Sequence record: NC_028448.1
DNA: 64,000 bases
Source of the DNA: Escherichia phage slur14
Direction: 5' to 3' (one strand)
In this document: one piece after another, positions 17,342 to 25,209 of the stretch
Position numbering within the stretch: position 1 is the first letter of the stretch
Layout of the letters: each line of letters begins with the position of its first letter
The notes under the pieces: generated by a model
What the model was told of the DNA's origin: nothing
The model's database searches: none
Seen by the model: the letters and a program-made list of their open reading frames with translations, nothing else
Made by a program: the position numbers and the translations under genes

Positions 17342-17961
17342 TCAACTACCTCAATATCATAAACTTTAAATGTTCCAAATGAATCGTGTAATTTTTCTTT
17401 TGAAATAGAAGTTATTCTATACTTTCCAATTGGAATCATCCATTCTTGTTCACGCACAATCATCATTAAGTTATCAGTACGCTCTGAATCTAGCCCATCA
17501 GTATCTTCATACGTGTACTTAAACTCAGTATTAGGAGAAGAAAGTATAATATCGCTGATATGGTCAGAATAATTAAAAGCTTTATCAGTTTTTAAGCGAA
17601 GTATTATTTTAGTAAAATATTCAGCATAAGAAAAAGAACATGCTGTGAGTAAACTAGTAGTAAATGAATCTACCCTGTTCGTTGAAAACACTTCTCCAAC
17701 TTGTAAATCTTTAATAAGTTCTTCTGTTGATTTTGATATACCACGATATAACTGATATGGTGATTTAGTTAAATGCTTTTTAATGATTTTATTCAATTGC
17801 CGATGAAGAGCTTCATTCTTTTTAGCTTCCATACATTGCCAAAGAACAGACTGCTCAAAGTCAGTAAATTTTTCACAGACCTTTTTATACATATCATATT
17901 GAAAATCAACGCTTTCAGCTTTTATAGATAACTGTTCAACATCTGCAAGATTAATAATCAT
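17338..17961 (-). CDS. modB: ModB ADP-ribosyltransferase
   Basis: 207 aa; adjacent paralog of modA. Confidence 0.75.
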   Translation of the reverse strand: MIINLADVEQLSIKAESVDFQYDMYKKVCEKFTDFEQSVLWQCMEAKKNEALHRQLNKIIKKHLTKSPYQLYRGISKSTEELIKDLQVGEVFSTNRVDSFTTSLLTACSFSYAEYFTKIILRLKTDKAFNYSDHISDIILSSPNTEFKYTYEDTDGLDSERTDNLMMIVREQEWMIPIGKYRITSISKEKLHDSFGTFKVYDIEVVE

Positions 17962-21331: not shown

Positions 21332-21391
21332 TATTTTTCCTTTCAATTCATTAATAAGTTAAATAATTATATCATTTGAGTATGTAAGCAA

Positions 21392-22731
<1,340 letters not shown>

Positions 22732-22740
22732 TATATCATC

Positions 22741-22786
22741 CTCAGCAATTTATTTTATAATACCATAACAAGCTGAGAAAGTAAAC
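22741..22786 (-). promoter_or_regulatory. early promoter cassette
   Basis: GTTTAC ... TGGTATTATAAA with flanking inverted repeat CTCAGC/GCTGAG. Confidence 0.55.
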
Positions 22787-22830
22787 AAATTTATGAAATT
22801 TGTGATAAATATTAATTTAAAGGAGGACAT

Positions 22831-23031
22831 ATGGTACAAAAATTAATGGCACTTGTTAATGCCATAAAAGGTAATAAAAAACGTATAGCTTTTACTATTT
22901 CTGCTATGGTAGGAATTTTACTCTGGAACTTTATTTTATCACCAATTGCAATTGCGCATGGTGTTAATATTCCAGTAGTTACTCTTGATACATTCGTAGA
23001 TCTAGCATTTGCTTTAGTTGGGTTAATTTAA
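22831..23031 (+). CDS. small hydrophobic membrane protein (66 aa), plus strand
   Basis: AAAGGAGG SD 4 nt before ATG; two predicted TM segments; convergent with gene 61. Confidence 0.4.
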   Translation: MVQKLMALVNAIKGNKKRIAFTISAMVGILLWNFILSPIAIAHGVNIPVVTLDTFVDLAFALVGLI

Positions 23032-24056
23032 ATCTTGGCATATTTAGATAGCCGCATTTTAGCCATCAACCCCTGGGCAATATTATTTTTCATATATTCC
23101 ATAATTTGTTCAGGGGTTGCACCTTCCTTTCTAATCATATCATTAACATCTTTTGATTTCCAGGGAGATTTATCCCAAAACATAACCCTTTCTCCTGCAT
23201 CAACTAATTTAGTCATTCGTTTAATAGTGTCAGGGTGACGAGGTTCATTATCTAAAACCCACACTCGTCTATCTTTAAATGGAACAACTTCTAGGTCTAA
23301 TTGACCACCCGTAATAGCTATACCATTTTCAATAAAAAGTGAATCTATAGGTCCTTCTAGAACATATACATCACCATCTTTAACTCGTTCGACTCCATAG
23401 ATTTTTGTTGCTTCAGGATAAGCTTTGATGGTGATATATTTTTGAGGAGCATCTTTCTTTAATGCACGTCCTTGAAACGACTCAGCTTTTCCATTAGCAT
23501 TATAAATTGGAATAACAAGACGAGGCTCAGAAATTTCCTTTTTATATGTTCCCGGTGCTATGCTATTAACCAATTTAGGCCATTCGGTTGTAAACCAAAG
23601 ATATTTCCATTTATCCTTTGGAATACAACGAGCTTTTACATATTTTATAATTGGATGGTCTTCCGCCAGTTTATCTAATCTAACACATGACGGAAGAGAT
23701 TTAATTATTTTCTTCTCAGGTTGTTTAGGAAGTTCTTTAGGTTTTTCTACTGGACGACTTTTACCTTTTTCTTTTCTTATTTCAAAGATATACTCACGAT
23801 ATAAATCAGGTTCAAACTCCTTTAAATATATTCCGATTGGTGCATGATAGTTACAGTTATAACAATGAATATTTCCTTCATTATTATCACCATAATACCA
23901 TCCACGGGCTTTATTTTGGTCGGTTTTTGAATCTCCGCAAACAGGACATCTAAACCGTAATTTAAAAGTTGAACTATTATTTACTTGTGTGAATTTAGGT
24001 AAATGAGCTAATGCACGGTATGCAAACTCATTATCAATCCAAGGTATTGATGACAT
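23028..24056 (-). CDS. 61: DNA primase gp61
   Basis: 342 aa; zinc-binding CPVCGDS...CYNC; same length as T4 gp61. Confidence 0.95.
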   Translation of the reverse strand: MSSIPWIDNEFAYRALAHLPKFTQVNNSSTFKLRFRCPVCGDSKTDQNKARGWYYGDNNEGNIHCYNCNYHAPIGIYLKEFEPDLYREYIFEIRKEKGKSRPVEKPKELPKQPEKKIIKSLPSCVRLDKLAEDHPIIKYVKARCIPKDKWKYLWFTTEWPKLVNSIAPGTYKKEISEPRLVIPIYNANGKAESFQGRALKKDAPQKYITIKAYPEATKIYGVERVKDGDVYVLEGPIDSLFIENGIAITGGQLDLEVVPFKDRRVWVLDNEPRHPDTIKRMTKLVDAGERVMFWDKSPWKSKDVNDMIRKEGATPEQIMEYMKNNIAQGLMAKMRLSKYAKI

Positions 24057-24223: not shown

Positions 24224-24269
24224 ATTAACCTCTATTCATAAAAGCATTAAAAATTTGGTCATCAATAGA
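24221..24269 (-). repeat. 49-nt direct repeat, copy A (gene junction)
   Basis: catattaaCctctattcataaaagcattaaaaatttggtcatcaataga; 1 mismatch to copy B. Confidence 0.8.
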
Positions 24270-24581
24270 TGGAATAGCAACCTTTTCGGCATCATTTAGC
24301 AAATCATTAATTTCATCAGATATCATAACACATGTGCCTTTATTTCCTGTAATTGTTACTGCACAATTACGAACGTTTTCTTTATCAAATTTTAGGTTAA
24401 TATTTTCGTAGTGAAAATCCTTTAATGCCGAATATATCTTTAAAATGAAATTGTCTTTTACTACAATAAACCCAACTTCACTATTAAAACGTGGTTCATG
24501 GAAACTGTAATAAACCTTTTCATCTATGAAATCGTATGAAATTTTTTCCATTTTTAAATATGAAAATTCAGAACTATACAT
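24225..24581 (-). CDS. hypothetical protein (118 aa); C-terminal 14 aa duplicated from next ORF
   Basis: Ends SIDDQIFNAFMNRG, encoded by a 49-nt direct repeat. Confidence 0.5.
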   Translation of the reverse strand: MYSSEFSYLKMEKISYDFIDEKVYYSFHEPRFNSEVGFIVVKDNFILKIYSALKDFHYENINLKFDKENVRNCAVTITGNKGTCVMISDEINDLLNDAEKVAIPSIDDQIFNAFMNRG

Positions 24582-24627
24582 ATTAATCTCTATTCATAAA
24601 AGCATTAAAAATTTGGTCATCAATAGA
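24579..24627 (-). repeat. 49-nt direct repeat, copy B (gene junction)
   Basis: catattaaTctctattcataaaagcattaaaaatttggtcatcaataga. Confidence 0.8.
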
Positions 24628-25209
24628 AACATTTACTTTAGACTGTTTTTCAGATGGCAATTCATATCCACATATTACAATTTTATGATCAATATCAAAA
24701 TACACAGAAGCAATATGATTAATGATATTTTCAGTGAAGTCTAAATCGACATCAATATCTTTTTGACCAAAGCCCAAAGGATAAATAATGCGAGTAATTC
24801 GATTATCTTTAACAAAGATTCCACCGACATACTCTGTACTGCGTTTAAAGTCTACACGCCGACGAAATGAAAAATATTCAGGCTCTTTATGAGCTCGGCT
24901 CATAGGACACAACGAGTAACTAGAATAAGAGATGTCAAATCCTACGCCTTCGATATGAGCCAAAGTGTCATGATTAAACCAATTATAATCGTACGCCAAA
25001 TCCATTAGATTATAATATGTAAAAGGCACCGGATTAACATCATTAGTCACAAGCATGTAATTAGCAACTGCTATAATTTCATTATTTTTAACGAATACAA
25101 ACCGTGATTGATGCGAATGACCTGGACCCGCGTTTTCACGATTAATGATATAACACTGGGCACCTTTATATTTGTATGTATCTTTGCACTTGTGCATTTG
25201 ATAGAGCAT
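24583..25209 (-). CDS. hypothetical protein (208 aa)
   Basis: ORF track; ends SIDDQIFNAFMNRD. Confidence 0.55.
   Translation of the reverse strand: MLYQMHKCKDTYKYKGAQCYIINRENAGPGHSHQSRFVFVKNNEIIAVANYMLVTNDVNPVPFTYYNLMDLAYDYNWFNHDTLAHIEGVGFDISYSSYSLCPMSRAHKEPEYFSFRRRVDFKRSTEYVGGIFVKDNRITRIIYPLGFGQKDIDVDLDFTENIINHIASVYFDIDHKIVICGYELPSEKQSKVNVSIDDQIFNAFMNRD

Follow-up and report, generated by a model that had tools for sequence, protein, structure and literature searches.

The DNA analysed here, referred to below as the window, is a 64-kb stretch (64,000 nucleotides) of Escherichia phage slur14 (NC_028448.1). The window represents a Tequatrovirus genome, and its positions 22100-23200 show 100% identity to phages slur03, slur08, Lutter and BYEP02. 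Next to gene 61, which encodes the DNA primase, it carries a small ORF on the plus strand, and very few other genes run counter to the uniformly minus-strand early region (Table 1). As originally predicted, this ORF converges on the 3' end of gene 61, and the two run tail to tail with an overlap of 4 nt (TTAA) in which their stop codons interlock. The 66-aa ORF had been singled out for a strong Shine-Dalgarno sequence placed 4 nt before its ATG, and AAAGGAGG was confirmed at that position. It is a rare feature in this DNA: the window contains 59 plus-strand ORFs that open with ATG and reach 50 aa or more, of which the small ORF is the only one equipped with a 5-mer Shine-Dalgarno sequence, and AAGGAGG occurs a single time in the whole 64 kb, both strands counted.

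Table 1. Positions of the small ORF, its predicted signals and protein segments, and its neighbours in the window
Feature	Position	Strand	Basis or remarks
dam	21392..22171		
Sigma-70-like early promoter, TTTACT-17-TGnTATTAT, for the operon of the 186-aa ORF and dam	22757..22785	-	Sequence motif
Late-promoter-like box GATAAATA	22804..22811	+	T4 late consensus TATAAATA; mismatch at the first, tolerated position
Shine-Dalgarno sequence AAAGGAGG	22819..22826	+	4-nt spacer ACAT to the ATG at 22831
Small ORF, 66 codons, MVQKLMALVNAIKGNKKRIAFTISAMVGILLWNFILSPIAIAHGVNIPVVTLDTFVDLAFALVGLI	22831..23031	+	ATG 22831-22833, TAA 23029-23031
Terminator-like hairpin ATGGCATTAACAAGTGCCAT with T run	22836..22865	-	Within codons 2-12 of the small ORF
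Predicted first transmembrane helix, codons 19-41	22885..22953	+	Hydropathy, AlphaFold2, invariant columns; basic stretch K13-R18 before it
Predicted second hydrophobic/amphipathic helix, codons 49-66 (D53, D57, G64)	22975..23028	+	Hydropathy, AlphaFold2, alignment with the last helix of PF11351
Gene 61 (DNA primase), convergent neighbour	23028..24056	-	Ends at 23028

The existence of the gene is already known, since hundreds of phage genomes carry an annotation for it and PHROG lists it as a separate family. By tblastn the small protein was matched in 691 phage records, 685 of them at a coverage of at least 80% and 6 below; the T4 copy lies at 17738-17938 and shows 97% identity. In the T4 RefSeq record (NC_000866.4) nothing is annotated between dam and gene 61. 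Many omics studies rely on this record, and their data sets cannot report the gene. The other T4 records and most relatives call the small ORF a hypothetical protein, and equivalents include CDS F10A_0032 of phage Lutter, RB32ORF030w, RB69ORF029w (Mosigvirus) and gp16.1 of Salmonella phage S16 (Gelderlandvirus). Some records carry the automatic labels 'holin', 'putative holin', 'putative membrane protein' or 'putative head morphogenesis protein'. A literature search on T4 transcription near gene 61, on T4 small proteins and on the names of the ORF and its family found no paper on the small ORF.

A plus-strand small ORF converging on the minus-strand gene 61 was found in at least seven genera of the Tevenvirinae (Tequatrovirus, Mosigvirus, Gaprivervirus, Moonvirus, Kanagawavirus, Jiaodavirus and Gelderlandvirus) and in a metagenomic T4-like contig. 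The gene order that is kept consists of gene 56 or dam, then the small ORF on the plus strand and then gene 61 on the minus strand. The DNA upstream is highly variable from phage to phage: dam may be present there, alone or together with the 186-aa ORF, gene 56 may follow directly, or the place may be taken by a homing endonuclease or other ORFs. Mosigvirus phages possess the small ORF and have no dam gene, and in Yersinia phage P8 a homing-endonuclease gene intervenes between the small ORF and gene 61. The latter case argues that the small ORF owes its preservation to something other than its overlap with gene 61 and, taken together, the two cases indicate that neither neighbour is needed for its conservation.

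The small ORF is a genuine protein-coding gene under coding constraint. Among 12 distinct Tequatrovirus coding sequences pN/pS was 0.17, and the changes seen in a comparison of 13 sequences were conservative (V/I, I/L, N/S, K/R), with the exception of A/T at residue 25 and V2A. Amino-acid identity between genera amounted to 51-54% in the annotated frame vs. 17-31% out of frame; for the comparison with Mosigvirus the values were 54% in frame and 31% and 19% in the other two frames. By codon position, the between-genus differences were distributed as 30/12/39 and 31/11/39. Between-genus dN/dS is uninformative because the synonymous sites are saturated (pS about 0.6-0.9), and the within-genus value was used instead. 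Conservation and Ka/Ks across T-even genomes had been proposed as a check on the ORF, and it proved to be intact in all but six of the matched records and constrained within Tequatrovirus. The claim that a genuine small membrane protein is encoded here on the opposite strand is upheld by the ~685 records from at least seven genera, by the low pN/pS and by the frame-specific conservation, and is further backed by the conserved promoter box and Shine-Dalgarno sequence described below as well as by the existing GenBank annotations.

The ORF might conceivably have arisen by chance between two genes, or be an error of annotation with no product made; it is short, AT-rich and hydrophobic, the curated T4 reference annotation does not contain it, and the literature search turned up no experimental report of it. 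This explanation is effectively refuted by the comparative data (conservation, synteny, selection and motifs), and we regard it as scarcely credible: the matches below 80% coverage are confined to the six mentioned, and an HMM search yields a coherent family of similar-sized proteins.

T4 late promoters consist of an 8-bp box, TATAAATA, located about one helical turn upstream of the start (PMC2988020). The leader of the small gene has the same layout, with a TATAAATA-type box about one helical turn before a predicted transcription start at ~22817-22819, as expected of a T4 late unit, which needs no -35 element; in phage Lutter an 8-bp plus-strand promoter is annotated at the position of this box. 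A NATAAATA box lies just 5' of the small gene in nearly all lineages, and the ATAAATA core is found 3-22 nt upstream of the Shine-Dalgarno sequence in 8 of 9 independent leader types; these include two different ones from Tequatrovirus and those from Mosigvirus, Gaprivervirus, Kanagawavirus, Jiaodavirus and the metagenomic T4-like contig. Across leaders the box takes the form GATAAATA, AATAAATA, CATAAATA or TATAAATA, its first base being off consensus in most lineages (G, A or C), and phage Moon has a degenerate late box only. Variation at -13 is common in T4, where 9 of 50 listed late promoters have A at this position and others show single deviations (PMC2988020). The alignment of the window with T4 turns near-identical a few bases 5' of the promoter box, and all genera inspected retain GGAGG or GGAG 5' of the ATG. 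The proximal box of Jiaodavirus and of one Kanagawavirus stands only 3-5 nt from GGAGG, so that the predicted start would clip the Shine-Dalgarno sequence.

The window as a whole is poor in such boxes. ATAAATA was counted 7 times vs. 39 +/- 6 expected, a depletion of about five-fold, and TATAAATA twice vs. 11.4 +/- 2.9 expected. Since the motif is strongly avoided in this early-gene window, a conserved box placed before a strong ribosome-binding site is unlikely to be accidental. The proposed search for a promoter upstream of the ORF on the plus strand has thus turned up a late-promoter-like box and no convincing sigma-70 promoter. In T4, all early and middle transcription in the region of the small gene is on the opposite strand (PMC2988020), and the plus-strand orientation would for this reason restrict expression of the gene to the late period. 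Judging from these sequence signals, the small gene is probably transcribed only late, from a gp55-type late promoter of its own, and box and orientation together would form an arrangement by which a small membrane protein is made in the late period only.

The start of the ORF had been thought to overlap the early promoter of the opposite strand. This is not the case, as the sigma-70-like promoter lies 46 nt before the ATG, next to the plus-strand late box and pointing away from it; a promoter is annotated near its position in phage Lutter. The first codons are instead covered by a minus-strand hairpin of terminator type, with a T run, which is probably the terminator of the gene 61 transcript. 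In phage fPS-2 an annotated terminator covers the first 49 nt of its ORF, which is the equivalent region. A minus-strand terminator inside the ORF was not found to be conserved across all genera, a clear hairpin with T run being present in Tequatrovirus only.

It is conceivable that the RNA rather than the protein is the functional product, a late antisense transcript into gene 61 shutting off primase expression or destabilising read-through early RNA. Because the stop codons overlap, any full-length mRNA would be complementary to the last part of the gene 61 message; a search of the plus strand gave no intrinsic terminator within 4 kb downstream of the small ORF, and the hairpin that probably terminates gene 61 has its complement in the 5' end of the ORF. 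Transcription of both strands, at different times, is documented for several sites of the T4 genome (PMC2988020). A T4 dRNA-seq preprint reports 150 phage start sites, 22 of them antisense (bioRxiv 10.1101/2024.04.04.588121). A purely RNA-based function is at odds, however, with the selection seen at the protein level, including amino acids that are invariant despite saturated synonymous sites, and with the conservation of the Shine-Dalgarno sequence. Moreover, the gene is retained in the phage where a homing-endonuclease gene parts it from gene 61, and its relatives in prophages have no primase neighbour. We therefore consider an RNA function improbable; a side-effect on gene 61 RNA, as a by-product of late antisense transcription, is possible. 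The original prediction had also envisaged the transcript as a regulator of the dam-region messages, which is not in keeping with the layout: the transcript would start at ~22817 and run away from dam, entering gene 61 from its 3' end, it would have only gene 61 mRNA or gene 61 read-through RNA to pair with, and the ORF is kept in the Mosigvirus phages that lack dam.

The product of the small gene is predicted to be an inner-membrane protein of 66 residues that forms a two-helix hydrophobic hairpin. Kyte-Doolittle windows outline hydrophobic segments at residues ~18-47 and ~45-66, and AlphaFold2, run on a 25-sequence alignment (mean pLDDT 79), places helices at residues 2-12, 16-42 and 52-62. 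The two methods agree on the two membrane helices that had been predicted, the first being strongly hydrophobic and the second marginal as a membrane span on hydrophobicity alone; the second is short (~18 residues) and carries D53 and D57. Its assignment to a hairpin is supported by the homology, described below, with the two helices at the end of PF11351 proteins. Five basic residues are found among the N-terminal 18 (K4, K13, K16, K17 and R18), and by the positive-inside rule the N-terminus would be cytoplasmic.

Residues W32, N33 and P38 are invariant, G44, P48 and G64 are invariant or nearly so, and residue 53 is acidic. The two helices are joined by a conserved loop, A-H-G-V-N-I-P, with the motif G44-x-x-(I/L)-P48. 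Helix-helix association is classically driven by an invariant Asn halfway along a transmembrane helix, and the one present here suggests self-association or binding of a partner. In being small, with at least one predicted transmembrane helix, the protein resembles a holin. Its C-terminus reads ...AFALVGLI, the charge is located at the N-terminus, and a hydrophilic, highly charged C-terminal domain is absent. A dual start of the holin/antiholin type was considered for Tequatrovirus, where Met1 and Met6 flank Lys4, but was rejected as other genera have no Met6.

The small protein is a full-length member of phrog_2024, a family without assigned function (E = 1.5e-31, 109 bits; residues 2-66 aligned with positions 1-65 of the 65 in the profile). 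No Pfam family was found for it even at E <= 1, neither NCBI-style family names nor the PADLOC defence models gave a match, and a Foldseek search of the AlphaFold2 model against PDB and BFVD returned family members only, with nothing significant outside. A single-sequence, word-indexed protein search retrieved relatives at 91% identity or more only, and alignments were needed to reach further. An exhaustive HMMER search with the family profile among 1.84 billion cluster representatives found only 23 proteins, all of them 45-99 aa long.

Distant relatives of 82-99 aa are common in enterobacterial chromosomes (one of them, P0121, on 941 contigs), where they sit in lambdoid prophages downstream of the tail-tip gene. 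Unlike the small gene, these prophage relatives are always accompanied by two conserved soluble proteins (~180 and ~105 aa), and are encoded with a nuclease gene as well. One of the soluble partners weakly matches a 'minor tail protein' PHROG. The possibility that the two are spanins was rejected, since they have neither an N-terminal transmembrane helix nor a lipobox. Several of the relatives are found within or adjoining Phage_lysozyme cassettes, as in one operon (L040) with the order 82 aa, 180 aa, 109 aa, lysozyme; two genes without assigned function separate the homologue from the lysozyme gene, and the better holin candidate in the prophage cassettes is another, coiled-coil protein that has a single transmembrane helix. 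The prophage-type cassette was also seen away from any prophage, beside restriction-modification and KAP NTPase genes.

The sole relationship detected outside this family is with PF11351 (GTA_holin_3TM). PF11351 comprises three-helix holins of marine and alphaproteobacterial phages, and its name links the type to the release of gene-transfer agents. The small protein itself scores below the PF11351 gathering threshold of 24.8 bits. When 43 family members were scanned singly, 11 gave sub-threshold matches to the same part of PF11351 (best E = 0.002) and 8 matched PHROG holin families, no other family recurring comparably. A weak tblastn match led to gp44 of Roseobacter phage CRP-125, a true PF11351 protein (57.9 bits) whose gene is located between the tail-fibre genes and the gene for DNA maturase A, which is the place of holin gene 17.5 in the T7 gene order. 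Alignment of the family profile with gp44 by hhalign gave a probability of 93.5% and a score of 40.6, compared to 7.8 for reversed gp44, at most 17.4 for 200 full shuffles and at most 21.5 for 200 block shuffles; three unrelated holins reached at most 10.3.

We also built a PF11351-type alignment of 7 members, against which hhalign gave 89.3% (E = 2e-6) for a profile of T4-like sequences only and 95.6% (E = 1e-8) for the wider family profile. The match spans ~50 residues of hydrophobic sequence, consisting of the two C-terminal helices and their connecting loop. In six phages inspected for additional PF11351 members, the gene directly abuts an endolysin gene in four. A correspondence between the N-terminal amphipathic helix of the small protein and the N-terminus of PF11351 is not supported, hhalign having given no N-terminal alignment even with permissive settings. 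On this profile evidence, the small protein is a truncated remote relative of the C-terminal hairpin of PF11351, outside the membership of that family.

Taken together, we consider it likely that the locus holds a genuine T4-type gene for a late, two-helix inner-membrane protein that is derived from a holin and most likely serves as an accessory in the lysis phase. In the course of events that we infer, in which the late expression, the topology in the membrane, the oligomerisation and a part in lysis are all predicted, transcription of the opposite strand in the early and middle periods would keep the gene off up to the onset of late transcription. Its product would then build up in the inner membrane and self-associate, or bind a partner, through the polar Asn of its helix. 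During the lysis phase it may act as an accessory holin-like protein or as a modulator of lysis timing, rather than as the main holin, given that T4 already has holin T. Mutants of T4 in t fail to lyse, holin T being needed for lysis, and the small protein can therefore not be a sufficient holin. Possible actions include seeding, delaying or sharpening the triggering of holin T, or depolarising the membrane. The more specific proposal, that T4 and its relatives possess a second late holin-derived membrane protein acting in the timing of permeabilisation or in lysis inhibition, is a tentative one.

A competing explanation to be taken seriously is a membrane role that has nothing to do with lysis. 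The late protein might take part in membrane steps of head assembly, in late superinfection exclusion or an ejection block, or in countering a membrane-associated host defence, and its likeness to holins would then reflect no more than a shared ancestral membrane hairpin. In T4-type phages the small gene never adjoins t, e, rI or the spanin genes, and its product has neither the charged C-terminus typical of holins nor the N-terminal half of PF11351. The company kept by the prophage homologue, with its two soluble partners and the weak link of one of them to tail proteins, and the occurrence of the cassette near restriction-modification and KAP NTPase genes would likewise fit another task, and the short, predicted periplasmic loop motif, the most conserved part of the protein, would suit binding of a partner. 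On the other hand, the only significant homology outside the family is to holins, several relatives lie in or beside lysozyme cassettes, and for the specific alternatives, including defence, for which PADLOC found no match, there is no positive evidence. We judge a role apart from lysis to be possible, if less likely, and a lysis-related role to be the most likely single function. Should a role in lysis timing or inhibition hold true, the small protein would be an extra, so far missing component of T4 lysis, which is among the most studied lysis systems; should it have no role in lysis, it would still be a well-conserved late membrane protein whose function is cheap to test.

As a predicted late accessory to lysis, the small protein can be compared with several known systems. 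T4 itself uses holin T, which is unrelated to it. Class II holins and pinholins, such as S68 of phage 21 and gp17.5 of T7, resemble it in length (~65-70 aa), in having two hydrophobic helices and in its predicted late expression, but show no detectable sequence relationship to it (hhalign score at most 10.3). PF11351 proteins are longer (130-150 aa vs. 66 aa) and possess an N-terminal helix, a long polar linker, an invariant GWRP motif and a basic C-terminal tail, all of which the small protein lacks, and their genes often stand beside an endolysin gene, whereas the T4-type small gene stands beside the primase gene. The C-terminal hairpin is nevertheless common to both, with an aromatic-x-F...P helix, a G...LP loop, an acidic residue and a (L/V)G(L) helix. 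The prophage relatives of 82-99 aa are longer than the small protein as well, with an N-terminal amphipathic region, and have in common with it the C-terminal module (phrog_2024, E ~1e-10) and the motif W/Y-N...P...G..LP..(D/E).

The start of the plus-strand small membrane-protein gene appears to serve both strands, since codons 2-12 of the small ORF contain a minus-strand hairpin followed by a T run (see table below) that is probably the intrinsic terminator of the gene 61 (DNA primase) transcript. The clear form of this hairpin is confined to Tequatrovirus.

The interval bounded by gene 56 and the small ORF (about 21350..22800 in the window, and the equivalent loci) is a hot spot where close relatives differ in gene content. 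In T4 it contains only dam, in the window dam plus a restriction endonuclease-like ORF, in fPS-2 and KP1079 a homing endonuclease and in T2 and HY03 other ORFs, and it is empty in Pu-Krd-SF6, EcNP1 and Mosigvirus. The promoter box of the small ORF, a late-promoter-like element, is carried by two different leader sequences.

The ORF that accompanies dam in the window is absent from T4. It encodes 186 aa, its stop overlaps the dam start as ATGA, and it weakly resembles restriction endonucleases of type II, with E = 0.0045 to DpnII in Pfam and E = 9e-5 to REase_II in PADLOC; in phage Shinka it is labelled 'putative restriction endonuclease'. Judged by these similarities, a DpnII-like (GATC) nuclease fold beside a GATC methylase would be a curious pairing in a T-even phage.

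The T4 late-promoter core is strongly depleted in the window, which is an early-gene region. In the whole window ATAAATA occurs 7 times vs. 39 +/- 6 expected, and TATAAATA twice vs. 11.4 +/- 2.9, a scarcity that would fit with stray late promoters being selected against.

Beyond gene 61, the adjacent 118-aa and 208-aa ORFs have near-identical C-terminal peptides (...SIDDQIFNAFMNRG and ...SIDDQIFNAFMNRD), which, on the sequence, suggests a local duplication or a common C-terminal module.

Coordinates of the features (window positions unless another record or locus is named)
Feature	Position	Strand	Remark
Putative intrinsic terminator, gene 61 transcript	22836..22865	-	hairpin + T run
186-aa ORF	22171..22731	-	directly upstream of dam; phrog_8706
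118-aa ORF	24225..24581	-	C-terminal peptide nearly the one of neighbouring 208-aa ORF
208-aa ORF	24583..25209	-	at position of T4 61.2
ATAAATA	12028, 19130, 22805, 24781	+	whole-window scan
ATAAATA	20427, 49575, 63668	-	whole-window scan
T4 copy of small ORF	NC_000866.4 17738..17938 (L001 2501..2701)		97% identical to window protein
Cassette with small-ORF relative	L023 3670..5291		
Cassette with small-ORF relative	L026		
Cassette with small-ORF relative	L027 3260..5082		
Cassette with small-ORF relative	L037 1635..4279		
Cassette with small-ORF relative	L040 4001..5610		

The T4 RefSeq record carries no feature at the position of the conserved small ORF, and analyses built on that annotation cannot report it. 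Lambdoid enterobacterial prophages have a conserved cassette in which the small membrane protein is represented by a relative of 69-99 aa, accompanied by two soluble, uncharacterised proteins (~180 aa and ~105 aa). A Phage_lysozyme gene and a GIY-YIG or endonuclease VII gene usually lie close by. Two of the 180-aa proteins, when compared, were 39% identical (E = 3e-22). The cassette of locus L026 lies outside a prophage, where its neighbours are an EcoRII-type restriction-modification system and a gene for a KAP NTPase.
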